Virus record (IMG/VR): IMGVR_UViG_3300045003_000080
Span: 55,830-119,829 of that record
Origin: a virus
Strand: one strand, 5' to 3'
Length of the DNA: 64,000 nucleotides
Shown here: piece after piece, positions 36,911 through 55,319 of the stretch
How positions within the stretch are numbered: position 1 is the stretch's first letter
How the letters are laid out: each line of letters begins with the position of its first letter
The notes under the pieces: generated by a model
Seen by the model: the letters and a program-made list of their open reading frames with translations, nothing else
The model's database searches: none
What the model was told of the DNA's origin: nothing
Translations under genes and position numbers: made by a program

Positions 36911-36912
36911 AC

Positions 36913-37520: not shown

Positions 37521-37729
37521 AATGGGTTGACTCCTTTGTCGGGGCGCTGTGGCCCCAGGGGCGAGCTGTCATTGGGTGTACGGGACATGTATGGCCCCTG
37601 GGGTTGCCCGGTGCCGCAACATCTTCGGGTAACGCACGTGGTACGGGCGCCGGGCGCGCCTGAATGTGTTGACGTGTTCGACGTTAACGCGTTGTGGTGC
37701 GTGTGCGCAAGGAAAACCCGGAAAACAAA

Positions 37730-37757: not shown

Positions 37758-37763
37758 GCCGCC

Positions 37764-39189: not shown

Positions 39190-39198
39190 ACCGTGCGC

Positions 39199-39651: not shown

Positions 39652-39701
39652 CCAAACCCCTCTCGCATGTTCGTGGGTTGTGGCGCAGAATACTGCCGAT
39701 C

Positions 39702-40415: not shown

Positions 40416-41239
40416 CCATTGAGATAGTCGGCGTCGGTGAAGGTGTTACGCCAAGGCGTGTGACGCTTCGGGCCGTTCGGCGCCTCGATCGCGATACGCA
40501 GCGAATCGACCGTGACGGCGCGCTTGTCCTGCGCGATGCGCGCGAGCCCGATGGTGATCTGCTCGTCGCTGTGGCCGGCGCGCACGGCAGCGCGCACCAC
40601 CCCGGCGACCGCGACGAACTTCGACAAGGGCACCCGGTCGGTGTAGGTGCGCGCCAACCGGTTGACGCGCTGCCCTTCCGTCTCGGGAGGGTCGGGCAGT
40701 CCTTCGACGAGGGGGAGCTGCTGCGCGTTCGCCGGAGGCGTGCGCGCCGTAGTTGTCTTTTCCGTTCTTCCGTTAACTTCCGTTATATAAGGGTGGTACG
40801 GCTCCCGTACTAGTGGTGGTACGGCTCCCGTACTAGTACTGTCCGGCTCCCGTACTAGTACGTTCCCCGTACTAGTAGCGCTCCCGTACTGGGGGGGTGG
40901 TACGGGAGCCGTACTAGTGACTGGTACGGCTCCCGTACTAGTAGCGGGCCTGTGGGGCGCGGGCAACTCCGGTTGGAAGCCGGGCATCCGGTAGACAGAT
41001 CGCCCCTTAGGGCCGTTTTCACCCTCAATGCTCTCGATCTCTCCAAGTTTGCGCAGGGTGATGAGGGCAGTGTTGACGGTGCTGCGCGCCAGTCGCGCTT
41101 TGTGTTGCAGCTCCGTCATGGACAGCCACGCGCGCCCGGTTTCCCTGTTGAGGGTGTCGGCGATGGCGAGCAGGACGAGCAGGGCGGGGCCTTTGGCTTG
41201 GGAGTGTTCCCACGCCCAGGTGGTGGCGTAGACGCTCAC
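40412..41239 (-). CDS. Replication initiator (N-terminal HTH, lambda O-like organisation)
   Basis: LVLLAIAD...AWLSMTEL...STVNTALITL; internal iterons; coupled to DnaC-like gene. Confidence 0.85.
   Translation of the reverse strand: MSVYATTWAWEHSQAKGPALLVLLAIADTLNRETGRAWLSMTELQHKARLARSTVNTALITLRKLGEIESIEGENGPKGRSVYRMPGFQPELPAPHRPATSTGAVPVTSTAPVPPPQYGSATSTGNVLVREPDSTSTGAVPPLVREPYHPYITEVNGRTEKTTTARTPPANAQQLPLVEGLPDPPETEGQRVNRLARTYTDRVPLSKFVAVAGVVRAAVRAGHSDEQITIGLARIAQDKRAVTVDSLRIAIEAPNGPKRHTPWRNTFTDADYLNG
40795..40943. repeat. Iteron cluster, putative replication origin
   Basis: About 7 copies of (GGCT)CCCGTACTAGT spaced ~17-25 nt inside the initiator gene, next to an AT-rich patch (TTAAC...TTATATAA). 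Confidence 0.85.
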
Positions 41240-41320
41240 GCCGCGCCCCCCGGGCGTGCATGCGACGGGTATGCCGGATTTGCTATGGGTGAAGTCATCT
41301 GATACCGTCGCTTCTGGTCC

Positions 41321-41348
41321 GAGCCCCGTAGACGCGTCTACGGGGCTC
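41321..41348. terminator. Perfect 28-bp palindrome
   Basis: GAGCCCCGTAGACG|CGTCTACGGGGCTC between GntR gene end and initiator start. Confidence 0.65.
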
Positions 41349-41388
41349 TCTTTCTGAACGGTAGGTGATGTGGAGCGTGTGACTCGTG

Positions 41389-41829
41389 TTACGCGGCGAC
41401 CGGCTCAGGGGAGACGTCGGTGGCGGCGAGCGCGGGGTCGATCACGGAGAGCAAATGGTTCGTCAACGGGTTGTTTTTCGTCTTGGCCAGGTGGTCGCGC
41501 AGCGATCGGGCGTGGTCGCGCGTGGCCTCGTCGTGCGCGACAAGGGCGGCCAGCAGTTCGGGGTCGAACAGATTCCATTCCCCGCGTGACGCGACACAGG
41601 TGCCGGTGTGCGGCCGGGCGGTGACAACGCGTTTACCTTCGAGGATGCGCAGGGCCTCGCGCACGACGGTGCGGGACACGGTGTAGTCGCGTTCGAGATC
41701 CTCGTAGAAGAGGCGGTCGCCGGGGCGTAGTTGACCTGCGCCGATGAGGGCCAGGAGGGTGTCGGCGAGGTACTCCGCGCGGGTGCCGTGTCGGCGTGGT
41801 TGTGGTGGTGGAAGGGGAGGGGATTCCAT
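41389..41829 (-). CDS. GntR/FadR-family regulator
   Basis: LRPGDRL...VSRTVVREALRILE...GTCV. Confidence 0.9.
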   Translation of the reverse strand: MESPPLPPPQPRRHGTRAEYLADTLLALIGAGQLRPGDRLFYEDLERDYTVSRTVVREALRILEGKRVVTARPHTGTCVASRGEWNLFDPELLAALVAHDEATRDHARSLRDHLAKTKNNPLTNHLLSVIDPALAATDVSPEPVAA

Positions 41830-41866
41830 CCCTTGATGGTACTGCCGCCATGGTCACTGAGCCGCC

Positions 41867-41895
41867 TTGACGTGATTAGGGGGTGCGAGTATGTT
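41867..41895 (+). promoter_or_regulatory. Phage promoter motif, copy 2
   Basis: TTGACGTGATT-AGG-GGGTGCGA-GTATGTT, that is TTGACG-N17-TATGTT. Confidence 0.65.
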
Positions 41896-41927
41896 AAGGG
41901 GGGAAGTTTATTACAGGAGGAAACAGC

Positions 41928-43004
41928 TTGATCACGCCGACCGACGTACGCAACTGGCTCGTGCTAGGCGGCAAGACGCCAGACACGGACGAGGGAGCAG
42001 ACGAGCCGGAAGTGCCGTCGTTCGTGGTGTCCGCCAACGTGCAACTCGAACACGTGCGCACCAAATGCTTCATCGACCACGACGCCAGCTCCAACCCCGT
42101 GTTCCGCCCAGGCCCAGACGGGACGAACAGCGCTGCCGCCACCGCGAGTATCAGTTGCGCATGCGGAGTCGTAAACAAGTTGATGGTTTCGCGTCGCGTC
42201 GTCAGCGTCGACATCGTCGCCAACGACCTCGCCGCCCACGCCGGCCAAGACTTACGCGACGCCATCGCCGACGCTGAAAGCCACAACTATCTGGACGACC
42301 TGCTCTTTGAACTCGAACAAAGAGGCGTGATCAAGGACGACGGCAAAGGACACTGGGTCATCGCGGCAGCCGCATCAACCATCACCGCACCCCCCGAGCC
42401 TGAGATTGAGCAGCTTCCGATCCCGCAACCCGAGCCCGCCCCAGTCGTCGTCGACACCGTCGAAGAGGCCCCCGCACCCCCAGTCGCCCCCCCGGCGCCG
42501 AAGCCGAAGCCGAAGCCGAAGCCGCCAGCCGCCACTGTTACTACAGTGCCGCACCCCACAGCCGCCCCGACCACGCCGACACCAACACCGGTACGCGTGC
42601 ACGTCTCCCGCAAGCGGGCACGCGCACGCGCACGCGACACCGCACCCACACCACCGGCTGCTACACCCACGCCAGCCGCCCCACCCGCACCCCCGAAGCG
42701 GCCAGCCGCCCCACCCGTACCCGAACTGCCGCCCCTGCCAGCCAAGCGGCCCTTCAACAAACTCACCAAAGCGGAACGCGAAACGCCGGTCGACGACTAC
42801 CACACGCAGCGAGCGAACCGGCCGCGCAACCGGCGCCCGAAAGCCCGGTGCCCATACTGTGGCAACTGGTCCGACCTCACCCCCCAAAACACCGTGTGGA
42901 AACACCTACACGGCCTGGACCCGTGCCCTGGTATCGGCTACCCGCCCGAGAACCTGCGCATCACACCCCGCACGAACCCACCCGGCGTATATGATGCGAC
43001 GTGA
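41928..43004 (+). CDS. Pro-rich protein with terminal Zn-binding motifs
   Basis: RBS AGGAGG; CACG; long Pro/Thr linker; CPYC...H...CPG. Confidence 0.7.
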   Translation: MITPTDVRNWLVLGGKTPDTDEGADEPEVPSFVVSANVQLEHVRTKCFIDHDASSNPVFRPGPDGTNSAAATASISCACGVVNKLMVSRRVVSVDIVANDLAAHAGQDLRDAIADAESHNYLDDLLFELEQRGVIKDDGKGHWVIAAAASTITAPPEPEIEQLPIPQPEPAPVVVDTVEEAPAPPVAPPAPKPKPKPKPPAATVTTVPHPTAAPTTPTPTPVRVHVSRKRARARARDTAPTPPAATPTPAAPPAPPKRPAAPPVPELPPLPAKRPFNKLTKAERETPVDDYHTQRANRPRNRRPKARCPYCGNWSDLTPQNTVWKHLHGLDPCPGIGYPPENLRITPRTNPPGVYDAT

Positions 43005-43124
43005 ACCAGGGGCCAGGATCATCGTGTAGCCCGAACGCCGACACGGCACCACCAGCGCACGCACCTCGCCGGCGTCCCGCTCCGTCCCTGGCCGAAAACC
43101 AGAGATCGCAGCAGGGGGAGACAC

Positions 43125-43394
43125 ATGTCCAGGCCCAACAGTCCGCACGCCAAACCCCGGGTCACCAGTAAGCCGCGACCACGAGACGACACGGGTACCG
43201 GCCAGCTCCACACGTTGGTCGAGCCCGCACAGGGCGTGGTGACCTGCCCGATCTGCCAGGGCGAAGCGCTCGTCGGCGCGAACCGGCTCGTCCTGTGGCA
43301 CTCGGCTACCGACCATGACGGGGCGCCGATCGACTGCCCAGGGATCGGCACGTACATGCCCGGCGTCGACTCGCTCGGCAAGGAGGCCGCGTAG
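43125..43394 (+). CDS. Zn-ribbon protein
   Basis: CPIC...H...CPG, the same motif as the upstream gene's C-terminus. Confidence 0.65.
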   Translation: MSRPNSPHAKPRVTSKPRPRDDTGTGQLHTLVEPAQGVVTCPICQGEALVGANRLVLWHSATDHDGAPIDCPGIGTYMPGVDSLGKEAA

Positions 43395-43796
43395 ATGCTG
43401 GCGCAGGCCGACGCTGAGGCCCATTTCGCGGCGATACCCGACCGGGTCGAGCGCGGTTACGAATGGCTGGGCAAAATCGACCCGGAGCGTCACGTGCAGA
43501 TCCTCCCGGGCGAGATCAAGATGTGGAGCAACCGATGGTGCGTGCTGGGCCAGTACGCGCACGCGTTCCGGTTCGCGGGACCCAACGCTCCGTATCAACT
43601 ACTAGAAGCGGCTGGCGTCGACCCGGGGGACCAGGTGTTCCTTCAGGAGAACGGTTTCGCGTGCCCGATCGGGTGGGAGCATCACGCTGATTTCCTGGAC
43701 CTGCAGAGCTATTACGAGCTGCTGCGTGAGGCGTGGGTGAATATTCTGACGCACGAACCGACGCGTGTGCTTGACACCACGCCCGCGCATAGGTAA
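43395..43796 (+). CDS. Hypothetical phage protein
   Basis: RVERGYEWL...CVLGQ...GF. Confidence 0.7.
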   Translation: MLAQADAEAHFAAIPDRVERGYEWLGKIDPERHVQILPGEIKMWSNRWCVLGQYAHAFRFAGPNAPYQLLEAAGVDPGDQVFLQENGFACPIGWEHHADFLDLQSYYELLREAWVNILTHEPTRVLDTTPAHR

Positions 43797-43939
43797 TTTC
43801 ATAGTCAGGCCCATCGTCTGTTTTCGTCCACGACACGATGGTGCGTACCACCCCTCCGGAAACAAACAGTCAGACACGTACACTGGCTGGTACAACGCCG
43901 GGCCGTCCGTTTCCCCCGCGACGGGCGGCCCGGCACCAA

Positions 43940-44012
43940 GCCCCTGTAGCTCAACGGATAGAGCACTGCACTACGGATGCAGACGTTGCGAGTTCGAATC
44001 CCGCCTGGGGCG
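43940..44012 (+). tRNA. tRNA-Arg(ACG)
   Basis: Cloverleaf; anticodon arm CTGCA-CTACGGA-TGCAG; TTCGAAT; one mismatch each in acceptor and T stems. Confidence 0.85.
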
Positions 44013-44073
44013 CAAACCGGCGACCACAATACGTCCGAACCTATGGAAGTCACGTCGCCGGCCGCAATTCCCC

Positions 44074-44147
44074 GTCCCAGTAGCTTCAGTGGAAAGAGCG
44101 CTGCCCTCCGGAGGCAGAGGTCGCGAGTTCGAATCTCGCTTGGGACA
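44074..44147 (+). tRNA. tRNA-Arg(CCG)
   Basis: CTGCC-CTCCGGA-GGCAG; GCGAG-TTCGAAT-CTCGC. Confidence 0.9.
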
Positions 44148-44282
44148 CGCGCAGCCCGCCACACGCAGCCCGTCAGCGTAGGCACCTGCGCCGACGGGTG
44201 TGGCCCCTCCGGCTGCCCCCGGACTGGCCACACCCGCCCCACCCCGGGGAGCCGTCTGCTGCCAGGCGGCTCCCCACCCCGG

Positions 44283-44354
44283 TCCCCTGTAGCTCAACGG
44301 ATAGAGCGGGGGCTTCCTAAGCCTCGCGTCCCGGTTCGAATCCGGGCGGGGGAG
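44283..44354 (+). tRNA. tRNA-Arg(CCT)
   Basis: GGGGC-TTCCTAA-GCCTC; CCCGG-TTCGAAT-CCGGG. Confidence 0.9.
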
Positions 44355-44371
44355 CGTTAACATATGAATAC

Positions 44372-44445
44372 GGGCCCGTAGCTCAGCAGGTACGAGCGAT
44401 TTCCCCACAAGAAATAGGTCGTTGGTTCGATCCCAACCGGGCCCA
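44372..44445 (+). tRNA. tRNA-Val(CAC)
   Basis: ATTTC-CCCACAA-GAAAT (C at position 33); GTTGG-TTCGATC-CCAAC. Confidence 0.8.
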
Positions 44446-44510
44446 CTCGCCCCTGGTGGCTGTAGCGCAGGCGGTAACCTGCTGTCCAAGCGCCGTCGGG
44501 GGAGACGCAA

Positions 44511-44582
44511 CGCCCTGTAGCTCACCGGTAGAGCGCCGCCACGACAAGGCGGAGGTACCCTGACCAACACAGGGCGGGGCGA
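44511..44582 (+). tRNA. tRNA-Val(GAC)-like RNA with non-canonical T and anticodon loops
   Basis: All four stems pair; anticodon loop ACGACAA, T loop ACCAACA. Confidence 0.6.
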
Positions 44583-44669
44583 CCGGGTGCCACGCGCACA
44601 TCTGCTCCACGCGGTGCGCGCACCCAGGGTGGTCCCGCCCTGCCGCACAGGGACGGGACCACCCGTTAC

Positions 44670-44740
44670 GGACACGTAGCTCAACGGTAGAGCAGCCGGC
44701 TGATAACCGACCGACGTAGGTTCAACTCCTGCCGGGTCCA
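44670..44740 (+). tRNA. tRNA-Ile(GAT)
   Basis: GCCGG-CTGATAA-CCGAC; GTAGG-TTCAACT-CCTGC; some stem mismatches. Confidence 0.8.
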
Positions 44741-45000
44741 CGAGGGCCTGGACGCCGAAGCTGACACGGTGTTCTCCTGAACCCATAGCCGCGTCCGGGC
44801 CCGCACAAGGTTTCCCGGGGGCCGATATCGGGGCGGTGCCCTTACACTCTTCGCCTCTGGGAGCGTCGTTGCGGGAGGCTGTTAACAAAACGGTACCCAA
44901 AGTGCATTCGCTTCCTGCAGCCCCGTTTCTGGCGGCCATGGGTTCACGCGGTTCCCGAACTACGACCGCCGCCAGACCACTTGTAGTATCGTAGCTGGCT

Positions 45001-45558
45001 GTGACGGATCAGCTACCAGGCCACCTGTTGTCGGCGAAACCCGGCGAGGAAAAGATCACCGAAACATGGAGATCACTACTCGGGCAGCTCCAACAGGTGC
45101 GCCGGCAACGCCGCATCAGTCAAATCAAACTGTCTGGTGTGCTCAACTTGATGGTGCTGGAAGGGAAAGCCGCCCCTGCGCTCACCGCCTGGGAGACGGG
45201 CAAGGATCTCCCGGCACTGGGCAACCTCATCAACTGGGCCGAAGCGCTCGGCCTCACGTTAGTGATACGCGAGCCCGGACGGGTCGCGTCGCCTCTCGTG
45301 CCGGAGCGGAACGAAAGCGCGGCTCGTTTCCAGTGCCGCAAACTCGTACGACCACTCGTCGAAGCCCGCGTGGGCAGGGAATGGACGCAGGAAATGGTCG
45401 GCAAGCAGGTGGGCGCCAGCGCATGGTCGGTGCACATGTGGGAGCGAGGGCTGCGCAACCCGCGCCTGATGAAGCTGCTGAAATGGTGTCAACTCCTGGA
45501 GTGCGAGGTAGTGCTGATGCCGCATCACCAGGGAACGGGCACGACCACAGTACGATAA
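45001..45558 (+). CDS. Tandem XRE-type HTH protein inside the tRNA cluster
   Basis: Two HTH units: RRQRRISQ...AWETGKDLP and REWTQEMVG...WERGLRNP. Confidence 0.85.
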   Translation: MTDQLPGHLLSAKPGEEKITETWRSLLGQLQQVRRQRRISQIKLSGVLNLMVLEGKAAPALTAWETGKDLPALGNLINWAEALGLTLVIREPGRVASPLVPERNESAARFQCRKLVRPLVEARVGREWTQEMVGKQVGASAWSVHMWERGLRNPRLMKLLKWCQLLECEVVLMPHHQGTGTTTVR

Positions 45559-45578
45559 TCGTGTATGGTTCGCGTAGC

Positions 45579-45652
45579 GGCGCTGTAGCTCAGTTGGTAC
45601 GAGCGTCTGACTGAAAATCGGAAGGGCCCTGGTTCGATCCCAGGCGGCGCCA
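45579..45652 (+). tRNA. tRNA-Phe(GAA)
   Basis: TCTGA-CTGAAAA-TCGGA; CCTGG-TTCGATC-CCAGG. Confidence 0.9.
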
Positions 45653-45663
45653 CTGTTGTACCT

Positions 45664-45736
45664 GGGGCTGTAACTCAATTGGCAGAGTATTATACTTTTA
45701 ATATAAGAGTTGTGGGTTCGAGTCCCACCAGCCCCA
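45664..45736 (+). tRNA. tRNA-Lys(TTT)
   Basis: TTATA-CTTTTAA-TATAA; GTGGG-TTCGAGT-CCCAC. Confidence 0.9.
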
Positions 45737-45796
45737 CTGTGCTGGTCGCCGTGTTCACGAACGTGTGCCCGAAGCGCATGCGCGACCAGCCGCACC

Positions 45797-45869
45797 GCCC
45801 CCATCTTCTAGCGGCCAAGGATGCAACCCTCTCAAGGTTGTGGCGCGGGTTCGAATCCCGTTGGGGGTA
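45797..45869 (+). tRNA. tRNA-Glu(CTC)
   Basis: CAACC-CTCTCAA-GGTTG; GCGGG-TTCGAAT-CCCGT. Confidence 0.9.
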
Positions 45870-45923
45870 CTGGTCGGCGCCCACGAATGTGCGTTTCCCA
45901 GCCTTTTCCGGCGCCGGCCTCTT

Positions 45924-45996
45924 GCTCCGGTCGTCTAGCGGCCTAGGACGCCGCCCTTTCAAGGCGGTAGCGCGGGTTCGAATCCCGTCCGGAGCA
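45924..45996 (+). tRNA. tRNA-Glu(TTC)
   Basis: CCGCC-CTTTCAA-GGCGG; GCGGG-TTCGAAT-CCCGT. Confidence 0.92.
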
Positions 45997-46165
45997 CCGG
46001 CCGGCGCCCGTAAGCGAAACGTTCTCCGATCACGGTACGGCGCTGGCCGCCCGTTTCAGGCGTGCTACCGGTTAAGGCCAAATGGTAACACGTTTAGTTG
46101 CTGGTCGCGAGGGTGGATGTTATGGTGTTCCCATCCCATTGACCCCTTCGCAGGGAGCGAAAACC

Positions 46166-47071
46166 ATGGCTCCATCCTGCCCACCACCAACCACCCCACA
46201 AAGCACGGTCACGGCGCTGACCGCGACTTCGCTGCAGGTCGAACCCGTCAATTTCTTGCCAGGATTCAGCAACAGCCAGGCGTTCAGCCCCTACTCCCAC
46301 AGCTACGTCGAAATGATTGCGCCAGTCGTCAATGCGTTTCCACAGTGGATGTCGCCGGGCACCGCAACGCCGCGAGTGCTGGGCACAGGCGAAGGCGCCG
46401 ACTTCCGCCCCCGGCTGCGCGCTGGCGCCGGCTCTGCTATCCGGTTCGGTGGCTGCCTGATGCAGGTCGCCTCGTTCCTCGCCGACGGGGTGTCCTGGAC
46501 CGACCACCCGCTCGGCGCCGACGAATATCTCGCCGGCTACGCCCGCTCACTCAACGACTACGCCAACGACGAGGGTCGGCAGGAACTGCTGCCGCTTGCC
46601 CCACGTCTCGCTGTGTCGCAGGTGGGCTCGCTGTCCCGGCGCGCGGACGCGTGGACGCAGATCGCAGCCGACGAGATCGAGTTGTTCGCACGCGGCTACC
46701 CAGGTGAAGTGCATGAGCGGGCGCAAGCCCTGGCGAAGGGCACCTGGGAATACCTGCACGGTGGCCCGATGCCGTCGGTCGTGGAGTTGGACCTCCCGGC
46801 CCCGATGGGGCTCGCGCTCTCGCTGTTCGGGCAGGTGCTCAGCTTCCGGCGAAGCGGCTCACCGGAGGTGGTTGTGCAGTCGGCCCAGCAGGTGCTGTGG
46901 AACCTGATTCACGCGCACAACGTGTGGGCTGGGCCTCGGGGGCGTGAGGCGCTGGGGACCGCGCTCGACGCGCACGAGCGGGTCACGGGTCGGCGCCTGC
47001 GCACCTTGGAGGAGGTTCCGGGTGAGGTGTGGGAGCGGATGCACCGGGGGATGATGGGCCTGGCTGCGTGA
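46166..47071 (+). CDS. Hypothetical protein
   Basis: ATG after GGGAG; GCLMQVASFLA...WTDHP...ARSLND motif. Confidence 0.7.
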   Translation: MAPSCPPPTTPQSTVTALTATSLQVEPVNFLPGFSNSQAFSPYSHSYVEMIAPVVNAFPQWMSPGTATPRVLGTGEGADFRPRLRAGAGSAIRFGGCLMQVASFLADGVSWTDHPLGADEYLAGYARSLNDYANDEGRQELLPLAPRLAVSQVGSLSRRADAWTQIAADEIELFARGYPGEVHERAQALAKGTWEYLHGGPMPSVVELDLPAPMGLALSLFGQVLSFRRSGSPEVVVQSAQQVLWNLIHAHNVWAGPRGREALGTALDAHERVTGRRLRTLEEVPGEVWERMHRGMMGLAA

Positions 47072-47301
47072 CCGCTTCCTGGCAGTACCACTACGACCAG
47101 GCGGTGGAGGGACTGCAGGCGGCTGACCGGGATGCGGCGCAGCTGATCGCTGCGATGGAGTCCGGGAAGCTCACGGACGAGCAGATCGACGGGGTGATGC
47201 GGGCGACGCTGCTCGGGCTGATCGGGGCGTTGGTTCAGGCGACGTTGGCGTTGGCGGTTGCGGTGAAGCCGACGGGTCAGCTCCCAACCATCACACTGTA
47301 G
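47068..47301 (+). CDS. Hypothetical protein
   Basis: GTGA overlap; 77 aa. Confidence 0.6.
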   Translation: MTASWQYHYDQAVEGLQAADRDAAQLIAAMESGKLTDEQIDGVMRATLLGLIGALVQATLALAVAVKPTGQLPTITL

Positions 47302-47345
47302 TAATGTGCTGACATATTGTCGGTGGTTGATGCGACCATCGCATC

Positions 47346-48071
47346 ATGACCACCCCTACGACGGACGTCGCCGTCCGCACCACCACCGCGCCCGCCTCCC
47401 GCACTCCCGTGAATGTGGGTGTTCCGATCAAGGGCCTGGACGAGGCATTCCGACTCGCCCAGGCCCTTTCCATGGCCGGGCTGCTCCCCTCCGGGCTGCG
47501 CGGCAAGCCCAGTGACGTGCTCGCGATCATCCTGTACGGCTCGGAACTCGGCATCGGCCCCATGCAGGCCCTACAAGCCGTCCACATCGTGCAGGGCCGC
47601 ACTGTCGTCTCCGCACAACTGTGGCTCGCCCTGCTGCGCACGCGTGGCCACCGCGCCAAAGTGATCGAGAACACCGACACCGTGTGCACCGTCGAGCTGC
47701 AACGCGGCGACACCGGCGAAACCCACCGTGAAACGTTCACCTGGGACGACGCGAAGAAAGCCAAGCTGACCAGCAAGGACGTCTGGCAGAGCTACCCGAA
47801 GCGGATGCTGCTCGCGCGCGCTGTCGCGAACGCCGCCCGGTTCCTCGTCCCGGAAGCGGTGCTTGGCATCGCGGCTGAGGGCGAGTTCTTCGACGAGGAG
47901 CCACAGCCGGGAGTGATCCGGCGCATCGTCGAGCAGGTTCCGGAGCCGGTCGACGCCGCCCCGTCAGAGACGCTCGCGCAGGTGCAGGCGCTGGCCGACG
48001 AGCTGGCGTCGGAGGGCCTGCAGAAGGCGCCTGAGCCTGAGGGCGAGCCGGCGATGGTGTGGGAGCAGTAG
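47346..48071 (+). CDS. RecT-like ssDNA-annealing protein
   Basis: LLPSGLRGKPSDV...GSELGIGPMQALQAVHIVQGR...WQSYPKRMLLARA. Confidence 0.85.
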   Translation: MTTPTTDVAVRTTTAPASRTPVNVGVPIKGLDEAFRLAQALSMAGLLPSGLRGKPSDVLAIILYGSELGIGPMQALQAVHIVQGRTVVSAQLWLALLRTRGHRAKVIENTDTVCTVELQRGDTGETHRETFTWDDAKKAKLTSKDVWQSYPKRMLLARAVANAARFLVPEAVLGIAAEGEFFDEEPQPGVIRRIVEQVPEPVDAAPSETLAQVQALADELASEGLQKAPEPEGEPAMVWEQ

Positions 48072-48073
48072 CC

Positions 48074-48964
48074 ATGCCCACGACCAGCGAGCTGCTCCTG
48101 CTCGCGGATCGGCAGCGTGCCCGGTCGCAGCAGCGCCAGTTGGGCATGTCGCAGGTGGGTGGGTGTCGTCGCCGGGCCGGGTACACCCTGGCCGGGACGG
48201 ACCCGGTCAACGAGGTCGGCAGCGTGGTGGCAGTGATGGGCAGCGCGATCCATGAGGCGGTCGCGGCCGGGGTGCGCGCGTTGAACCGGCCCGGGGATCT
48301 GGTGGAGCGGGAGGTCAGGTTCGCCGGGCTGATGGGGCATCTGGACCGGTACGAGTGCGAGTCGCAAACGGTTGTCGACACCAAGACGGTGTCGACGCGG
48401 CGCCTGGAACAGGTGAAGCTGGAAGGGCCGAGCACGCAGCAGCGTTGGCAGGTGTCGCTGTACGCGGCTGCGCTGCTGACGGAAGGCATCCCGGTGACGC
48501 ATGTGCGCATCGACTACCTGGTGCGTGACACGGGCGTCGAACACAACGTGCAGTGGCCGTTCGACCCGGACGACGTGAAGGACGCGGTCGACTGGCTCCG
48601 GCAGGTGCGCGACACGCCGCTCGCGATGCTCCCCAGGGACTACGCGCCGGACTCCGTGTTCTGTCAGGGCTGCCCTTTCGGGGGTAAAAACGGGGGGGTG
48701 TGCTGGCAGGGGCATGTGCCCGATCGGGATTTTCGCAGTGTCGAGGTGGTCGAGGGCGCGGATGTGGCGCAGGCTGCTGATGAACTGTTTGCGCTGCGTA
48801 AGAAGCTCAAGGAGTTGAGAGAACGGGACGAGTGGCTGCGTGGTGTGCTCGACGCGGTGCGCCCGGTGCAGGAGGGTGCGCTGGTCAAGGCGGGTGACAA
48901 CTATTTGAAATGGACGGCGACGCGTACGGGTGGTCACGCGTTGAGGTTCGTTGCGCCGCCTTGA
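48074..48964 (+). CDS. PD-(D/E)XK Cas4/RecB-like exonuclease
   Basis: GMSQVGGCRR, GHLD...VDTKT, QVSLY, CQGCPF...C; next to RecT-like gene. Confidence 0.85.
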   Translation: MPTTSELLLLADRQRARSQQRQLGMSQVGGCRRRAGYTLAGTDPVNEVGSVVAVMGSAIHEAVAAGVRALNRPGDLVEREVRFAGLMGHLDRYECESQTVVDTKTVSTRRLEQVKLEGPSTQQRWQVSLYAAALLTEGIPVTHVRIDYLVRDTGVEHNVQWPFDPDDVKDAVDWLRQVRDTPLAMLPRDYAPDSVFCQGCPFGGKNGGVCWQGHVPDRDFRSVEVVEGADVAQAADELFALRKKLKELRERDEWLRGVLDAVRPVQEGALVKAGDNYLKWTATRTGGHALRFVAPP

Positions 48965-48997
48965 CCTGCAAAGCAATCATAACTAATATCGTCGCCC

Positions 48998-49306
48998 ATG
49001 AATAAGCAACAACTCGTGAACGAAGTCCGCGCACGCACCGACCTGCCCGAGAAGCAGATCACTGCCACCATCAACGCCACGCTCGACGCCATCACCGACG
49101 AACTGTTCCAGGGTCGGTCCGTCTCGCTCGTCAACTTCGGCACGTTCGAGGTCTACGATGCGGCGCCGCGAAGCGGCGTCAACCCGCGCACCAAAGAGAA
49201 GATCGAGATCCCCGCGAGGCGGCGCGCACGCCTCGACTGGAGCAAGACCCTGCAGCAGATGATCGCCGACACGGCACCGAAGACGAACGCCGAGACGGTG
49301 TCGTGA
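48998..49306 (+). CDS. hup: HU-family DNA-binding protein
   Basis: MNKQQLV...VSLVNFGTFEV...GVNPRTKEKIEIPA. Confidence 0.92.
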   Translation: MNKQQLVNEVRARTDLPEKQITATINATLDAITDELFQGRSVSLVNFGTFEVYDAAPRSGVNPRTKEKIEIPARRRARLDWSKTLQQMIADTAPKTNAETVS

Positions 49307-50085
49307 CCGATCTGGTCCGTTTCCTGACCTCCCTCCGGCAGCAGGTTGGCGAGCTGCCGGAGGGGGAGAAAGCCCTCGTCGACTACCTGGTCCAGCTGCC
49401 GGCCAAACGGTGGGACGTGGACTGCGAAGTCGTCGCGCTCTACATCCTGGACCGGTACCGCACCAGGATCCCGGATATCGGCCTGCGCCTGCCCCCGGTC
49501 GAAACCGACCTGGTCGCGCTCGCCTCAGCAGCCGAACGCATACGCCAAAGAGCTGAACGCTGGGCACGCGGATCGTTCACCAAACAGGTCGTCGCCATCC
49601 TCGACAGCGAGGGCGGCACCCAAGTTGTCGTAGTCGTACTGCCCTGGTTCCATCAGCGTTTCATCGAGGAACTCAGAAGCATCGACGGGTACCGATACGT
49701 CAACGCGTTCAAACAGCACAAGAAAGCGACGCTGTACCCGATCACAAGCGCGACCCAGGTCGTGCGCTGGTGCCGGCGCCGCCACATCACCCCATCGCCC
49801 GAACTGGAACGGCTCGCCGGTCCCGTCGGCGAGCAGCTCGACGTCGAACTCGACGTCACCCTGGTCGAGGACGGCACGAGGCTGCGTGTGTCGTTCGCGT
49901 ACAACCCCCGGGCCGTCGCAGAGATCAAACAGATCCCCGGCCGGAGGTTCGACCCGATTACGAAAGACGCCTGGTCCGTCCCGGTGGAGCAGTTGCCTGC
50001 CGTGCTCGCGTTCGCCGACGACTGGGGGCTGGCCTACGCCGAAGACCTCCCGGAGCAGGTGCAAGCCTCCCGAGGGGTATCGTAG
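49303..50085 (+). CDS. Protein with tandem HARP-like domains
   Basis: VSFAYNPRAVAEIKQIPGRRFDP...WSVP and an earlier similar unit. Confidence 0.6.
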   Translation: MTDLVRFLTSLRQQVGELPEGEKALVDYLVQLPAKRWDVDCEVVALYILDRYRTRIPDIGLRLPPVETDLVALASAAERIRQRAERWARGSFTKQVVAILDSEGGTQVVVVVLPWFHQRFIEELRSIDGYRYVNAFKQHKKATLYPITSATQVVRWCRRRHITPSPELERLAGPVGEQLDVELDVTLVEDGTRLRVSFAYNPRAVAEIKQIPGRRFDPITKDAWSVPVEQLPAVLAFADDWGLAYAEDLPEQVQASRGVS

Positions 50086-50121
50086 AAACACCTTTAAACG
50101 CTGGGTGTTTCCGGGGGTGCG

Positions 50122-50754
50122 ATGCTCGATTCGGGATGCCAGGTGTGCGGGCGCGGTACGCAGGCACGGGTGTGTCCCGGGTGCGTGGACCGGGTGGGTG
50201 ACGAGATCGTGTCGCTGCCGGCCTGGTATGCGCGCCTGGCTGGTGTGCTCGCCCCGAGTATGGGCGCGAGTAGCGGGGAGAAAGTCGCGTCGTCCCGGTA
50301 CGGGATGCTGAACCTGCGTGTTGAACCGCTCAATCTGCGCGCCTGGGGTGGGATACCCAGTGTGCTGCTCGGGTGGGAGGACGCGTGGCGTGATGAGCTA
50401 CGTTGGGAGCAGGCCCCGTTTCGCGGCAGCGCCGCGCAAACCGTCGACGGCTGCGCGCGGTTCCTGTCCACGAATTGGTTGTGGGCGGCCGATTCGTACA
50501 CTGCTGTCGCCGATTTCGCGGCTCAGGTGCACCGCCTGGTCGGGGAGTGTCGGTTGCAGGTCGAGGGGCCAAGCGGGACGCGGCAGGTGGGTGTGTGTCC
50601 TGTCGCGGCCCCTGACGGGTATGTGTGTGGCACCGCCTTGTATGCGCATCCGTACGTTGACGTGATCGAGTGTCGCGGGTGCCGTGCACGGTGGGAACGG
50701 CCCAGGTGGATCGAGTTGGCGACGCTGTTGCGGGCATCGAAGGAAACGGCTTAA
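50122..50754 (+). CDS. Zn-finger phage protein
   Basis: CQVC...CPGC N-terminus; CP...CG...CRGC C-terminus. Confidence 0.65.
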   Translation: MLDSGCQVCGRGTQARVCPGCVDRVGDEIVSLPAWYARLAGVLAPSMGASSGEKVASSRYGMLNLRVEPLNLRAWGGIPSVLLGWEDAWRDELRWEQAPFRGSAAQTVDGCARFLSTNWLWAADSYTAVADFAAQVHRLVGECRLQVEGPSGTRQVGVCPVAAPDGYVCGTALYAHPYVDVIECRGCRARWERPRWIELATLLRASKETA

Positions 50755-50791
50755 CATCGTGGCGCCGCTTGCCTCGCGAATGGAGGGCGTA

Positions 50792-51121
50792 ATGGCGCGG
50801 AAAACGATGGTGCGACTGGTCGACGATTTCGACGGGGGTGACGCTGACGGCACCCATCGGGTCGTGTTGGATGGGCGCGCCTACGAGTTCGACCTGTCGA
50901 AAGCCAACTGGCAGCAATTCGTTGACACGGTGGAGCCGTATCTGAAGTGTGGGCGCCGGGTGGCCACCGGGGGGCGTAACGGCACGCCGGCGCAGCGCCG
51001 TGCACAGTCGGCGAAGGAACGGGCGTGGGCGAAAGCGAACGGTTTCGTCGTGTCGGATCACGGGCGTGTGCCAGCGCACGTGAGAGCGGCGTTCAACCGG
51101 TCACAACAGGTTGAGGTATAG
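50792..51121 (+). CDS. lsr2: Lsr2 nucleoid-associated protein / xenogeneic silencer homolog
   Basis: MARKTMVRLVDDFDG...YEFDLS...RAWAKANGFVVSDHGRVP. Confidence 0.92.
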   Translation: MARKTMVRLVDDFDGGDADGTHRVVLDGRAYEFDLSKANWQQFVDTVEPYLKCGRRVATGGRNGTPAQRRAQSAKERAWAKANGFVVSDHGRVPAHVRAAFNRSQQVEV

Positions 51122-51206
51122 TCGTCCTGCCTCCCCGCGCCTGACGTAAGCGGTAACTTTTCGAGGCGGCGTCCGTGGACCGGGCGCAGGGAGGCACCCA
51201 ACACCA

Positions 51207-51557
51207 ATGGGCAGGCAAGTGGATGGCGTGCCGTTGACGGCGCGTCGGCTGGAAGTTTTGGAGCTGCTCGCGCAGGGGCTGACGACCAGCGAGATCGGGC
51301 GTCGGCTGTTTCTGGAGCCGAGTACCGTCAAGACGCACATCAAGTTCATCTACCGGGCGATCGGGGCGCGTAACCGGGTACAGGCCACTGCGTGGTGGCG
51401 GGACCATTATGTGGCGCCGCCCACGAGGGCGTATGTCGAGGTGCCGACCGGTTTGTGGCGGCAAGTGGTTGATGCTGTGGCGGATGGTGGGACGAGGCTG
51501 CCGGTACCGGTGTGCGCCAGGGTGCGGGAGTTCGAGGCCAGGCGTATCAACCAGTGA
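51207..51557 (+). CDS. LuxR-type HTH regulator
   Basis: LTARRLEVLELLAQGLTTSEIGRRLFLEPSTVKTH. Confidence 0.88.
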   Translation: MGRQVDGVPLTARRLEVLELLAQGLTTSEIGRRLFLEPSTVKTHIKFIYRAIGARNRVQATAWWRDHYVAPPTRAYVEVPTGLWRQVVDAVADGGTRLPVPVCARVREFEARRINQ

Positions 51558-52090
51558 GATCATGGGCCCGGAGGTGGCCCTGTGTGACGTGGGCGTTGTG
51601 CGTGCCGACGAATCTCAACTTGTTGACGATGAACGAGCGGGTGCACTGGTCGTCGCGTGCGTCGGCGACCTGCGCGTTGCGCGAGTGGGGCAAGTGGGCG
51701 GCGCGCCGTGAACGCATCCCTGCGTGTGAACAAGCGTGGGTGGCGTTGGTCGTGTACCCGAACAACCAGCGCCGTTTCGACGCGTCGAACTATGCGCCGA
51801 CGGCGAAGGCCCTGGTCGACGGGGCGTTGGTGGACTCGGGTGTGTTGCGGGACGATGACAATGCGTGTGTTCCGGTGACGGTTTTCGCGTCGGGGCCGCT
51901 CTGGCGTGGCGCACACAAACACGTTGTGCTATATATCATTGGTCGGGAGCCGGAGGCACTGTACTGGTGGCGCGACGCCGAGCGCGACGTCCACCCTGGT
52001 TCTGCCGCTCCCCTCACCCCTTCCCGTTCTCGCCGTCCGGCGCGCGTAGTCACGCCTCGCCGGCCGACGGGAACATTGTTCATCAACTAG
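51554..52090 (+). CDS. RusA-like Holliday junction resolvase
   Basis: RRFDASNYAPTAKALVDGALVDSGVLRDDD. Confidence 0.8.
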   Translation: MRSWARRWPCVTWALCVPTNLNLLTMNERVHWSSRASATCALREWGKWAARRERIPACEQAWVALVVYPNNQRRFDASNYAPTAKALVDGALVDSGVLRDDDNACVPVTVFASGPLWRGAHKHVVLYIIGREPEALYWWRDAERDVHPGSAAPLTPSRSRRPARVVTPRRPTGTLFIN

Positions 52091-52106
52091 TTAACGTCAG
52101 GAAGAC

Positions 52107-52700
52107 GTGACCATGCCGTCGTCGTCGGACCAACCCAGCGTGCAAGACCTGATCAACGAGGCGATCGACGCCGACCCGACCGCGAGCCCGGGTGAGCTTG
52201 CCGAGTTGGTGATCGGGGCGCTCGATCCGAGTCAGTACGCTGCCGCGTTGCGTCGCACGTTGCCGCAACTGGCGCGTAACGCCCTGGCGACGTACCGGGC
52301 GCAGACGCTTGCGCCGACGCCGTCGGGGTCAAGTGCGAAGCGCCTGGCCTTGCAGGGGTACGCGATGACGTTGGCGCAGCGTGCGCAGGCGGCGCGTGGT
52401 GTGCAGTTGCACGTGGGGGGCGGTGCGTATAAACAGCTTGGTGAGTGTACGGATCGGGATCTGTTGTTCGTGGTGCTGTCGCGTAAGCGTGCCGCGAACC
52501 TGTTGGAGGAGCGGGCGTACCGGTATGAGCAGCTGCGTTTGGCGATGCAGGATGCGGGTGCGGCGACGGTGGCGCAGTTGGATGACGACGTGCTGATGGA
52601 AACCCTCGCCGGTGATATGGTAACCTCCGAGCCTGGTTCCCTCGTGGCCGACACTCTCACGTCCCCCGACGTACCATCGCCCCGGGAACCCGACGCATAG
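52107..52700 (+). CDS. Hypothetical protein whose 3' end contains the first array unit
   Basis: 197 aa helical protein; YKQLGECT...DL motif. Confidence 0.7.
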   Translation: MTMPSSSDQPSVQDLINEAIDADPTASPGELAELVIGALDPSQYAAALRRTLPQLARNALATYRAQTLAPTPSGSSAKRLALQGYAMTLAQRAQAARGVQLHVGGGAYKQLGECTDRDLLFVVLSRKRAANLLEERAYRYEQLRLAMQDAGAATVAQLDDDVLMETLAGDMVTSEPGSLVADTLTSPDVPSPREPDA

Positions 52701-53312
52701 AACATCCACACATTGCCAAACCTCCCGGTGGCCGAAAGCGTTCCGGCGCCCGCGACCACACGCCACCGGGACCCATTAAGTCCGCGCCCGGGAGCCTGTC
52801 TCAATTCCCGCACCCAGAGACCCAACGCCCCGGGCGCACCCCAAACCTCCCGGCAACCACACAGAAGCGACAACCAATTGAGATCGCCTGCCGGGACCAG
52901 TCCCACGCTCAGGAGTCAATAGCGCTACGAACAGCCGAAATACCTGCGCCCCTGGGCGCCCCAAAACCTCCGGTCGGCCACGCGACAAACACTCGCCACT
53001 TGAATTCGCCGGCCGAAGCCCCCGTCCGGTGGCCACAGCAACGCACATCCCCGATGCGCAACGCCACCGGACCCCGATCCTCCGGCAGGCCGTACGACGC
53101 ACGACACCCCGTAGTCTGACGCCCACCGGACCGCGCCCCCTGCGACCATAATCAGGTCGGGTCCCACCCTAACCCCGTCGCAGGGGCGCACCACAGACCG
53201 CCCGCATCGCCCATGTAGTTCACTGGTTTCCATAACCGGCTCGCGATGCGGGCACCCGACCAGCCCCGCGCCCGTCTTCAAGTCCACACCCATACGATCA
53301 ACGGCGCGGGGC
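52635..53312 (+). ncRNA. Stem-loop TIGR-like guide array, 11 units
   Basis: Each ~45-57-nt unit is closing stem + CCR-N(8-10)-CG-loop(3-5)-CCR-N(8-9)-CG + stem. Example at 53133: GCGCCCCCTGCGA-CCA-TAATCAGGT-CG-GGTC-CCA-CCCTAACCC-CG-TCGCAGGGGCGC. Confidence 0.85.
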
Positions 53313-53340
53313 CCACGCCGCCCCCTTGAAAGACCACACC

Positions 53341-54261
53341 ATGCCGACTCCCCTGTGCGCCTACCGTCCCGAAGCGTCGCTGCTGGCCAAAGCCGTCGAA
53401 CAGGCCGAAACGATGCGCATCGCCGCCCAGAACAACCTGCGAGCGTTAACCCGTAACGAAGCAGACAAGGACGGCATCACCCGGGGACTCGGGTTCCCCG
53501 ACGACGCCCCCGTCGTGATCTACGCGCGTCGCATTGTTGACGACCTGCTCGCCACCGAACAGGACTACATCAAGACGTTGGAAGTCGTGATGAAACAGCA
53601 CCCGTTTGCCCCGTTCATCGCCCGCACCAACGGCGTCGGCGCCAAACAACTGGCGAGACTGCTGGACGCGATCCGTGACCCGTACATCAACGACCGTGAC
53701 GACCGGCCCCGTACCGTGTCGGAGTTGTGGTCGCTGTCCGGGTACGCGGTCGTCAACGGGGAAGCGCCGCGTCTTCGACGTGGGCAGCGCGCGAACTGGT
53801 CCCCCCAGGCCAGGATGCGCGCCTACCTGATCGCGGTGCAGGCCCTGAAATCCCGCAAGGCGACGTGCAAACCCGACGGGGACAGCGACGAGGCGCGCAC
53901 CACACACATTGAGAACTGCGGTTGCAGCCCGTACCGCATCGTGTATGACCAGGCGCGTGCGAAGTACGCCGACGCGGTGCATGTGAGCGAGTGTGTGCGG
54001 TGCGGTCCGTCCGGGTCGCCGGCGCAACCCGGCTCCCCGCTTGCGGCCGGGCATCAGCACGGGCGGGCATTAAGGAAAGCAGCCAAGGAACTCCTTAAAG
54101 ATCTTTGGCGGGAGGCGCGGTGGATCCACTGGCTCAACGATGGTCTCGACGTGGATGCGGCGCAGCGCCTGGCCGATGAAGCGGGTATGACCCTGGTGGA
54201 GGCGGCTGCGTGCCTGATGGAAGACGCCGCACAAGGCAACCGGGTGAGCGTCAACGCATGA
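53341..54261 (+). CDS. tasA: Nop-domain (IS110-related) RNA-binding protein without nuclease domain, TasA-like
   Basis: Coiled coil MRIAAQNNLRAL, GVGAKQLARLL, TVSELWSLSG, RRGQRANWSPQAR, YRIVYD, HGRALRKAAKELLKDLW. No N-terminal RuvC/DEDD or HNH. Directly follows the array. Confidence 0.8.
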   Translation: MPTPLCAYRPEASLLAKAVEQAETMRIAAQNNLRALTRNEADKDGITRGLGFPDDAPVVIYARRIVDDLLATEQDYIKTLEVVMKQHPFAPFIARTNGVGAKQLARLLDAIRDPYINDRDDRPRTVSELWSLSGYAVVNGEAPRLRRGQRANWSPQARMRAYLIAVQALKSRKATCKPDGDSDEARTTHIENCGCSPYRIVYDQARAKYADAVHVSECVRCGPSGSPAQPGSPLAAGHQHGRALRKAAKELLKDLWREARWIHWLNDGLDVDAAQRLADEAGMTLVEAAACLMEDAAQGNRVSVNA

Positions 54262-54881
54262 ACACACTCATCAAGGCGTTCACACCCAGGGCCCGGCCGC
54301 TCCCACCCACCGTGATCGTGTTGCCGATGCTGGACTACGACCAGCAGTACCCGGTTCCCGACTGGCATTTGGAGCATGGGGGCACCCGGGAGCAGTGGTT
54401 CGACCACTGGTTCACGGCGCAGGAGGACCGTGAGCGTGAGTGGCGTGAGATCGTGGACCGGTTCCTGACGCAGCCGGACGAGTTCGCGTACGCATGGGTA
54501 TACCTGGACAACCATCCGGTGTTTTGGCAGTTCGCCGAAGAGGGCAAGCTGTCGCCCCTGGAACGGCTCCACGAGCAGTACCTGTGCGACACCGACGGGA
54601 TCGCGAGGTGTGTGCGTATCCACGTGTGGCGTGGGCGGGGGCGGCGCCGTAAGGACACGGTCACGCAGGTGCGGCTCGAAGCTGGCAAGTGGCCTTGGCC
54701 GTGCGAGCCGACACAGGAGGAGCCGTACGAGGTGCGGCATGAGGATCCCCTGTTGTCGGTGCGGGAACCGACGGTCGAGGTGGCGTTTACCGCGCTCGCC
54801 GCCCGGGTGCACGAGTTGTACGGCGATGACCGGCGCAAATGCGGCGACCCGATCTACGTGTACCCGAGCGACTCGCAGTAG
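54258..54881 (+). CDS. Hypothetical protein
   Basis: ATGA overlap with the Tas-like gene. Confidence 0.7.
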   Translation: MNTLIKAFTPRARPLPPTVIVLPMLDYDQQYPVPDWHLEHGGTREQWFDHWFTAQEDREREWREIVDRFLTQPDEFAYAWVYLDNHPVFWQFAEEGKLSPLERLHEQYLCDTDGIARCVRIHVWRGRGRRRKDTVTQVRLEAGKWPWPCEPTQEEPYEVRHEDPLLSVREPTVEVAFTALAARVHELYGDDRRKCGDPIYVYPSDSQ

Positions 54882-54896
54882 ACGAGGAACAGCGAC

Positions 54897-55319
54897 ATGA
54901 ACGACGAAGAGGACGCGTTCGACCACATGCCGGCCTGGGCGGGGCAGGAGCTGAAGTGGGCCGACACCCTGCTCGACGCGATGGTCGAGTGCGCGTTCGC
55001 CCCGGACCTGACCGGGTTCGAGGAGATGTTCGCCTCGTCGCCGCCTATGGAGCGGCGTGAGGAGTACCTGCTTCGGCTACGCAGGCACGGCGATGGTTAC
55101 CGCATCCACGGTCACGCCGACGTGGTGTGGAACGGGGCGAGCTGGTCGCCGAACTGGGGCAGCAACATGGGGTTCATCTACCCGAGTCTGCGCGACGCGG
55201 TCGACGACGGGCTGCCGGCAGCGATGGCGTCACACACCAAGGTCGTGCACGCGATGCTCGCCCTCAAGCTCAAGGTCCGCCAGGATCTCGCGAACAAGAT
55301 CGGAGGCAAGGGTGACTGA
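54897..55319 (+). CDS. Hypothetical protein
   Basis: 140 aa, RBS GAGG. Confidence 0.65.
   Translation: MNDEEDAFDHMPAWAGQELKWADTLLDAMVECAFAPDLTGFEEMFASSPPMERREEYLLRLRRHGDGYRIHGHADVVWNGASWSPNWGSNMGFIYPSLRDAVDDGLPAAMASHTKVVHAMLALKLKVRQDLANKIGGKGD

Follow-up and report, generated by a model that had tools for sequence, protein, structure and literature searches.

A probable stem-loop TIGR-TasA system in a complete 120-kb phage genome, with guide units at several loci and between tRNA genes

Introduction

Eleven tandem hairpins, each with its own closing stem and two short spacers, are located directly upstream of a gene for a Nop-type protein without a nuclease domain, and this locus of a phage genome raises the question of what such an array and its protein do. 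The locus covers positions 52635-54261 of a window of 64,000 nt, which is the second half (55830-119829) of the IMG/VR virus record IMGVR_UViG_3300045003_000080; coordinates refer to the window unless marked "genome". The record is complete with 119,829 bp, has direct terminal repeats and a GC content of 65%. An earlier note, written from the sequence alone, had taken the locus for an 11-guide, DNA-binding, non-cutting system resembling TIGR-TasA. The analysis reported here points to a stem-loop-type TIGR-TasA system of the phage, with guides that would bind DNA without cutting it, at a probability of roughly 80%.

TIGR-Tas systems are compact RNA-guided systems which require no protospacer-adjacent motif (PAM); they were discovered in 2025 and are now becoming tools. 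Stem-loop TIGR arrays with TasA were described in 2025 for a locus on a Peromyscus gut contig (section 9 of Faure et al. 2025, PMC12045711). According to that section and to a preprint (Xu et al. 2026, 10.64898/2026.09.09.750476), stem-loop guide RNAs (tigRNAs) have variable palindromic stems and two spacers of 8-12 nt, which are flanked by box C/D and separated by a segment of about 9 nt (the inter-spacer segment). The preprint catalogues 2,559 stem-loop arrays upstream, downstream and inside of tas genes and reports no Y/H processing loop, and its stem-loop systems include the TasA proteins of B. longum and Minisyncoccota. Processing was often observed at a CUU motif at the stem base, which is frequent rather than defining, and the maturation enzyme is left open (Xu et al. 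2026). The natural role of the nuclease-free TasA and the maturation of stem-loop tigRNAs are open questions in these papers.

Because stem-loop TIGR-TasA systems were already published in 2025-26, the locus with its 11 units is by itself one more ordinary member of a known family. Beyond the published kind are a guide set distributed over several loci and a conserved packing of guides between tRNA genes, which make the maturation of stem-loop tigRNAs directly amenable to experiment.

The array upstream of tasA

About 640 nt between an open reading frame (ORF) ending at 52700 and an ORF starting at 53326 or 53341 contain no plausible gene. The 11 units listed in the earlier note were all recovered, with starts offset by 0-4 nt (Table 1), and the four spacer pairs quoted in it occur exactly as written. 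Each unit is composed of a variable stem, box C (CCR), a spacer A of 9 nt, 2 nt, a loop of 3-5 nt, box C' (CCR/CCN), a spacer B of 8-9 nt, and CG. When anchored on CCR, spacer B has 9 nt in six units and 8 nt in five. The order claimed previously, CCR-spacerA-CG-loop-CCR-spacerB-CG, could be parsed in 11 of 11 units, with box C' being CCR and the final CG present in all of them and box C being CCR in nine; the first CG of that order fared less well, as given below. The last unit ends 28 nt upstream of the tasA ATG.

Perfect Watson-Crick arms of 7-11 nt, spaced 29-42 nt, were found in 8 of the 11 units by an inverted-repeat search, and the stems of the units starting at 52906, 52971 and 53081 are closed with G-U pairs or 1-2 mismatches, so that a closing stem of its own, as had been claimed for each unit, was confirmed. 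Outer arms (53133-53139/53183-53189) lengthen the 53137 stem of unit F9. The first C of box C and the last G of box D prolong the closing stem, and the same pairing of box C with box D is described for the TasR structure in section 8 of Faure et al. 2025. Tandem Repeats Finder returned 0 rows in the region at a minimum score of 30, in line with the prediction that ordinary repeat finders would miss the array, and a CRISPR array was rejected since near-identical direct repeats are absent.

The fold z-score of the plus strand against shuffled sequences was -4.8, compared to -2.7 for the minus strand, and the plus strand far outscored the minus strand in the covariance model R2 (described below), for example with 41.2 versus 18.6 bits for unit F2. 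In 18 model-aligned units, 88.3% of the stem cells were paired, compared to 65.6% after shuffling (0 of 500 shuffles reached 88.3%) and 35-48% after sliding of the partner, and two-sided changes were present in 8 of 10 stem pairs; because this alignment was fitted to the model, the stem statistics lean towards structure. A scan of 51900-54500 yielded no sigma-70-like promoter (0 sites) and one terminator-like site, which is located on the minus strand. As no terminator separates the array from tasA, the plus strand of 52635-53312 would be transcribed probably together with tasA.

Unit F1 overlaps with the upstream ORF (52107-52700) in its final 66 nt. The match of this ORF to PHROG 4604 stops at residue 162 of 197, which places the unit in the unmatched C-terminal tail. 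It resembles the similarly placed intragenic units of Xu et al. 2026.

The TasA protein

A single Tas gene was found in the whole 119,829-bp phage; a six-frame search of the genome for a second tas gene that might go with the distant arrays gave nothing at E<=1. The claim of a Nop-domain, Tas-like product was corroborated by sequence and by fold. Using phmmer against the PDB sequences, TaTasR (9mty) was matched with an E-value of 1e-9 over residues 79-192 and 241-265, and TasH (21kl) with 0.04. An AlphaFold2 (AF2) model was computed with 32 homologues as input, and reached a predicted local distance difference test score (pLDDT) of 93.6 and a predicted template modelling score (pTM) of 0.87. 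The model opens with two long helices (15-42 and 62-90), the coiled coil beginning at residue 15. In Foldseek, TasR and TasH chains took all of the first ten places (E 4e-8 to 1.4e-5, with about 255 columns aligned), with 9mty at 4e-8, the TasH entries at about 1e-6 and a probability of 1.00; IS621 followed with 0.01-0.04. The comparison with Tas, Nop5 and IS110 that had been proposed in the earlier note was thus clearly topped by Tas, with IS621 behind it and Nop5 weak. Its description of the protein as nuclease-less also held, since the AF2 model contains no RuvC or HNH module and no Pfam domain was found at E<=1.

PHROG 4285, which is labelled 'transposase', matches TasA with an E-value of 4e-78. 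An IS110-family transposase was rejected, because neither the model nor Pfam gives an N-terminal RuvC-like (DEDD) domain and the match to IS621 reflects a shared domain only. This IS621-like domain probably explains the label of PHROG 4285 and also that of gp72 of Mycobacterium phage SarFire (see below).

A homodimer was predicted with a score of 0.59, compared to 0.30 for the best of three controls; 20 of 30 proteins whose structures are pairs of one chain pass the mark for a dimer, as does 1 of 23 with single-chain structures. The runs had at least 88% of contacts in common and a partner pLDDT of at least 82, and the predicted interface is symmetric and formed by residues 15-41 and 55-88 on the two N-terminal helices. 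TasA is therefore predicted to dimerise through its coiled coil, but as Tas dimers are already solved, the pass may come from likeness to them and is not an independent proof.

The protein family is large, with 1248 representative clusters at E<=1e-3; N-terminal extensions or insertions are frequent among them. Within the clade of this TasA, a Cys/His cluster is located at residues ~199-243, in which H219, C223, C226 and H243 are at least 90% conserved among 32 sequences, and a consensus CxC is found about 20 residues upstream of it. Possibly these residues form a zinc site within an inserted part of the RNA-binding domain.

Guide units across the genome

Further units were searched for in the whole genome by descriptors and covariance models. 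A strict descriptor gave 42 clustered matches, compared to a mean of 10.4 in 20 shuffled genomes; a loose descriptor was dropped (266 matches versus ~207 in shuffles). The training set of covariance model R1 was restricted to 10 units of the main array. Because the MAFFT alignments did not keep register throughout, four of its units have stems shifted by 1-2 columns, which makes R1 a weaker model. Genome-wide, R1 detected two tandem units at 37552-37656 (E 0.002-0.005) and one at 45998 (E 0.002), and more weakly 44812, 44869, 44926, 44450 and genome 16931. Model R2 was built from 18 R1 matches and run without filters. It added the window units at 45871 and 45739, and placed 13 of its 19 matches in the first genome half in a minus-strand block at genome 16251-17108. 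This block is an array of 15-16 units in a gene-free gap of 1.7 kb, which terminates in a terminator-like hairpin near genome 16205-16240. Smaller groups of units are located at genome 26338-26479 and 28902-29016.

Altogether, about 43 units, parsed by coordinates, are distributed over six loci of the phage, about 32 of them beyond the main array in five other loci. The 11 guides of the earlier note are right for the locus itself and an undercount for the genome. By a gene call based on the GC content of third codon positions, 41 of the 43 units are located in stretches without a gene. All 86 spacers are distinct; their mean GC content is 46%, compared to 65% for the genome, and 19 of them open with 'TA'. 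The modal length of the inter-spacer segment is 9 nt (2+7; 21 of 43 units), and box C is CCA or CCG in 26 of the 43. These 86 spacers are a large natural guide set for target hunting.

In the 15-16-unit array (genome 16251-17167, minus strand), similar stem types return every 2-3 units, and every second or third unit is followed by a conserved, AT-rich linker (~15 nt) whose core resembles TATTAT. The pattern suggests growth by block duplication with spacers changing later, with the linker as a possible internal promoter or RNase site. The neighbours of the arrays outside the main locus are PHROGs of unassigned function and one HNH endonuclease gene (232 aa, genome 28124-28822, plus strand; PHROG 338, E 3e-17), which is located directly upstream of the units at genome 28902-29016.

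Relatives

Three contigs with TasA proteins 48-49% identical were found in IMG/VR. All of them have units detected by R2, with arrays beside the tas genes; one (G002) is a complete record of 145 kb with units scattered over its genome. In a one-genome-per-species collection, the sole relative (40% identical) is encoded on a 146-kb contig (DATDLJ010000106.1) of a metagenome-assembled genome of Solirubrobacterales (actinobacterial), and this contig is possibly a binned phage or a prophage.

A distant blastn search recovered a tas homologue in 77 Mycobacterium phage records under varying annotations (hypothetical protein, transposase, DNA-binding protein). In Mycobacterium phage SarFire (NC_022324), the TasA homologue is gp72, annotated as 'transposase', and the 336-nt gap upstream of it contains four R2 units (E 2.5e-4 to 0.14) plus one recognised by eye. 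As the same kind of locus is present upstream of gp72 in Fromanvirus Mycobacterium phages, which grow on M. smegmatis, the role and maturation of the guides could be tested in an existing laboratory system. A literature search combining 'mycobacteriophage' with 'TIGR-Tas' found only the paper of Faure et al. 2025, through one citation. The HNH gene gp70 of SarFire is located two genes downstream of the tas homologue.

GC-rich hairpins are common in the intergenic DNA of actinophages, and the units might be protein-independent terminators, attenuators or stabilisers resembling repetitive extragenic palindromes (REP), with a coincidental Tas neighbour. This is very improbable in view of the fixed box-spacer-box layout with 86 distinct spacers, the absence of T-tails and of any plus-strand terminator in the scan, and the arrays which R2 finds adjoining tas homologues in four other phages.

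Units packed between tRNA genes

The units of the tRNA cluster bear on guide maturation. None of the nine tRNA genes in the window encodes a 3' CCA. Six of the nine (Arg-acg, Val, Ile, Lys, Glu-ctc and Glu-ttc) are followed by a unit within 0-3 nt, and for two of these units the next tRNA begins only 3-5 nt further on, which results in the nearly base-to-base series tRNA-Lys, unit, tRNA-Glu, unit, tRNA-Glu, unit. The relative G002 has a cluster of 22 tRNAs plus a transfer-messenger RNA (tmRNA), in which R1 detected four units exactly filling tRNA-tRNA gaps (Cys-unit-His, Lys-unit-Thr, and twice Thr-unit-Thr), with 0-4 nt left at the margins (E 7e-4 to 0.03). Two weaker units are located after the tmRNA and after tRNA-Gly, and the gap after tRNA-Val has the same layout by eye, with UG as box D.

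Where a tRNA gene encodes no CCA, RNase Z is expected to cleave after the discriminator base. Cutting of the upstream tRNA by RNase Z or 3' trimming, together with RNase P at the downstream tRNA, would most likely release the tRNA-flanked guides and define their ends. The evidence gives about even odds that in this phage clade one TasA is served by ~43 two-spacer guides from six loci and that natural tRNA-tigRNA polycistrons cut in this way have evolved. If so, stem-loop tigRNAs would have a concrete maturation route for the first time, and plant tRNA-snoRNA (small nucleolar RNA) genes and engineered tRNA-guide arrays would have a counterpart in a prokaryotic virus. The packing suggests RNase P and RNase Z as processing enzymes that can be tested. 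No paper was found that brings tigRNA, tRNA and RNase P together, although the supplementary tables of the TIGR papers may list tRNA-linked arrays or this contig; the word 'tRNA' has 0 occurrences in the text of the TIGRFinder preprint (Xu et al. 2026), and within Faure et al. 2025 it was met in the reference list only.

Alternatively, the abutment of real guides on tRNAs could mark sites of unit insertion or duplication, or shared promoters, and the guides would then be matured by the same RNase as those of the tandem arrays. Since about 34 of the 43 units do not adjoin tRNAs and need other processing, tRNA enzymes cannot be the sole maturation route; moreover, tigRNAs were processed in E. 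coli without tRNA context (Xu et al. 2026), and a cluster of 10 tRNAs in the first genome half is free of units. Such an origin is hard to reconcile with the tight packing on two sides (0-3 nt after one tRNA, 3-5 nt before the next) and with its recurrence in a phage with a 48% identical TasA, other tRNAs and other spacers, which argues for selection on the junctions. It is considered possible, if doubtful. The unit-free cluster speaks against the overall reading proposed here as well, as do the weak or missing scores of units E0, E2, E6 and E7 in the independent model R1: in a 3-kb search, E2 (at 44745) had an E-value of 0.69 and E6 was not found at E<1.

The tigRNA-like unit after the tmRNA of G002 sits in a 53-nt gap before tRNA-Ala and has UG as box D. 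In the window, the longer gaps of the tRNA cluster (44149-44282 and 44503-44669) contain strong GC-rich hairpins and a tRNA-like stretch not called by ARAGORN. An Rfam search of 36000-55000 returned tRNAs only, besides sub-threshold chance matches; one sub-threshold match at 44294-44428 was to YrlA (Y RNA-like), with 30.9 bits compared to a gathering score of 69.

Table 1. Features of the probable TIGR-TasA system and of the tRNA cluster in the window
Feature	Position	Strand	Remarks
tigRNA unit F1	52635..52690	+	Stem broken by internal loops; R2 E 0.04
tigRNA unit F2	52723..52771	+	10-bp perfect stem; R2 E 6e-6
tigRNA unit F3	52784..52837	+	9-bp perfect stem; box C is CCT
tigRNA unit F4	52848..52896	+	8-bp perfect stem
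tigRNA unit F5	52906..52958	+	Stem with one G-U pair; box C is TCA
tigRNA unit F6	52971..53018	+	Stem with one G-U pair
tigRNA unit F7	53024..53072	+	10-bp perfect stem
tigRNA unit F8	53081..53131	+	Stem with 2x2 internal mismatch; R2 E 3e-5
tigRNA unit F9	53133..53189	+	10-bp perfect stem 53137-53186 plus outer extension
tigRNA unit F10	53200..53253	+	11-bp perfect stem
tigRNA unit F11	53263..53312	+	10-bp perfect stem
tasA	53326..54261	+	311 aa from TTG 53326; likelier 306 aa from ATG 53341
tasA domains			Coiled coil 15-90; Nop-type RNA-binding domain; two additional C-terminal helices 276-309
Array D, two tandem tigRNA units	37552..37656	-	243-nt gene-free gap; R1 E 0.0019 and 0.0054
tRNA cluster, 9 genes	43940..45998	+	Arg x3, Val, Ile, Phe, Lys, Glu x2; interleaved with units E0-E8
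tigRNA-like unit E0	44017..44061	+	3 nt past tRNA-Arg(acg); weak score, R1 E 0.098 (3-kb search)
tigRNA unit E1	44450..44502	+	3 nt past tRNA-Val; R1 E 0.005 (3-kb search)
Tandem units E2-E5	44742..44978	+	E2 atypical, begins at the base after tRNA-Ile; E3-E5 canonical
tigRNA unit E6	45740..45791	+	2 nt past tRNA-Lys, 5 nt before tRNA-Glu(ctc); R2 E 0.21
tigRNA unit E7	45871..45920	+	0 nt past tRNA-Glu(ctc), 3 nt before tRNA-Glu(ttc); R1 E 0.088 (3-kb search)
tigRNA unit E8	45999..46049	+	0 nt past tRNA-Glu(ttc); R1 E 0.0022 genome-wide, 5e-5 in 3-kb search

Targets and proposed mode of action

The transcript of the main array would be a precursor of 11 hairpin guides, each closed by a unit-specific stem of 7-11 bp and carrying, in this order, box C (CCR), spacer A, box D', 3-5 nt, box C', spacer B and box D (CG). 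A coiled-coil dimer of TasA would hold one tigRNA through the box C/D anchors, and the same single TasA would be served by the ~32 units from the five other loci. Each of the two spacers is expected to pair with 9 nt of target DNA, the two stretches being adjacent and on opposite strands, so that a target spans about 18 bp and needs no PAM. As TasA has no nuclease domain, the complex would bind without cutting, and most likely block transcription or replication of a target in the host or in a rival element. DNA binding with repression is proposed for this TasA by analogy with its homologues: TasA ribonucleoproteins (RNPs) were reported to bind target DNA and to repress reporters without cleavage, and TasA and dead TasR acted as reversible RNA-guided repressors (Xu et al. 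2026).

Since cuts by TasR leave 8-nt 3' overhangs (section 7 of Faure et al. 2025), the expected target reads, on one strand, spacer A and then spacer B in reverse complement. Targets of the 43 guides were searched for in both orders of spacer A and reverse-complemented spacer B, with gaps of 0-2 and up to 3 mismatches, and re-paired spacers were used as controls. In this search for bipartite targets, which the earlier note had called for in phage and host genomes, no excess over the re-paired controls was found in the own genome, in the related phages G001 and G002, or in a fragment of SarFire. Self-regulation through perfect or nearly perfect targets in the own genome was rejected on these grounds. 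Because no targets stand out in the own genome, the relatives or the SarFire fragment, they are probably located in the host or in unrelated mobile elements.

The system might also do a job other than repressing foreign or host genes, such as recruiting a separate nuclease, aiding recombination or partition by DNA bending, or acting on RNA. The lack of DNA targets in the own genome and in two relatives would fit such a job, as would the HNH gene at genome 28124-28822, directly upstream of two units, and the one located two genes downstream of the tas homologue in SarFire; in addition, roles of TasA as an integrase aid or linked to ParB are raised in the Discussion of Faure et al. 2025. HNH genes are common in phages, however, and a link of this one to TasA is hypothetical. 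The sole experimental data on TasA show DNA binding and reversible repression (Xu et al. 2026), and TasR was inactive on RNA substrates (section 7 of Faure et al. 2025). A different job of this kind is rather unlikely.

Several results weigh against a TIGR-TasA system that binds DNA. Among the 11 main-array units, just 5 have CG as the first box D, so that this part of the previously claimed layout does not stand, and box C is not CCR in 17 of the 43 units. CUU (CTT) serves as box C in 0 of 43, though the preprint ties CUU to processing (Xu et al. 2026). The box counts for all 43 units are to some extent circular, since the motifs counted are also those on which the parser and the choice of units rely; the clustering, the model matches and the stems are not circular. 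For the protein, Pfam Nop (PF01798) gave no match to TasA at E<=1 and direct Foldseek matches to Nop5 were weak (E 0.4-1.7), for which reason the label "Nop fold" rests mainly on Tas homology, and an archaeal or eukaryotic box C/D RNP protein (Nop5/Nop56/58) was rejected. Finally, the own genome contains one target match at 2 mismatches and 7-9 at 3, compared to 0.7-0.8 and 7.4-7.9 in the controls, and none above control was present in G001 and G002 (both searched whole) and in the 6.4-kb SarFire fragment.

Comparison with known systems

The phage system shares with the published stem-loop TasA systems a solo Nop-type Tas protein, tandem hairpins with variable palindromic stems, two spacers of about 9 nt between box C and box D with an inter-spacer segment of about 9 nt, and the placement of units upstream of tas, elsewhere in the genome and partly within a coding region. 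It differs in its boxes, with CCR instead of CUU as box C and CG instead of UG as box D (the relative G002 has UG). It also differs in the distribution of its ~43 units over six loci up to 92 kb from tas, some of them between tRNA genes.

The TaTasR complex (9mty) and the TasH complexes (9vzx, 9w04, 21kl) are the best match in sequence and fold, over the coiled coil and the C-terminal RNA-binding domain. Unlike TasR and TasH, the phage protein has no RuvC or HNH domain and has two extra C-terminal helices, and its guides are hairpin units instead of 36-nt dual repeats; a CCA-type box C is common to both, as far as section 8 of Faure et al. 2025 describes the dual-repeat arrays of TasR. IS110/IS621 with its bridge RNA (8wt9, 8wt6) is a distant fold match of the RNA-binding domain (E 0.01-0.04). 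Here the RuvC catalytic domain is absent, and arrays of many guides take the place of one bridge RNA.

In box C/D small RNPs (Nop5-fibrillarin-L7Ae), a two-guide RNA is likewise held on a dimer of Nop-domain proteins; the presumed target of the phage system is DNA and not rRNA. Plant dicistronic tRNA-snoRNA genes are reportedly processed by RNase Z, in work ascribed to Kruszka et al. in 2003. The phage units resemble them in that guides directly follow a tRNA and, as proposed here, would be freed by tRNA enzymes. Engineered polycistronic tigRNA-tRNA arrays, from which endogenous tRNA enzymes release the guides, are described for yeast in part of a preprint (10.64898/2026.07.30.739390). As described there, those arrays are man-made and carry dual-repeat TasR guides in a eukaryote, whereas the arrangement in the phage is natural and conserved in two phages.

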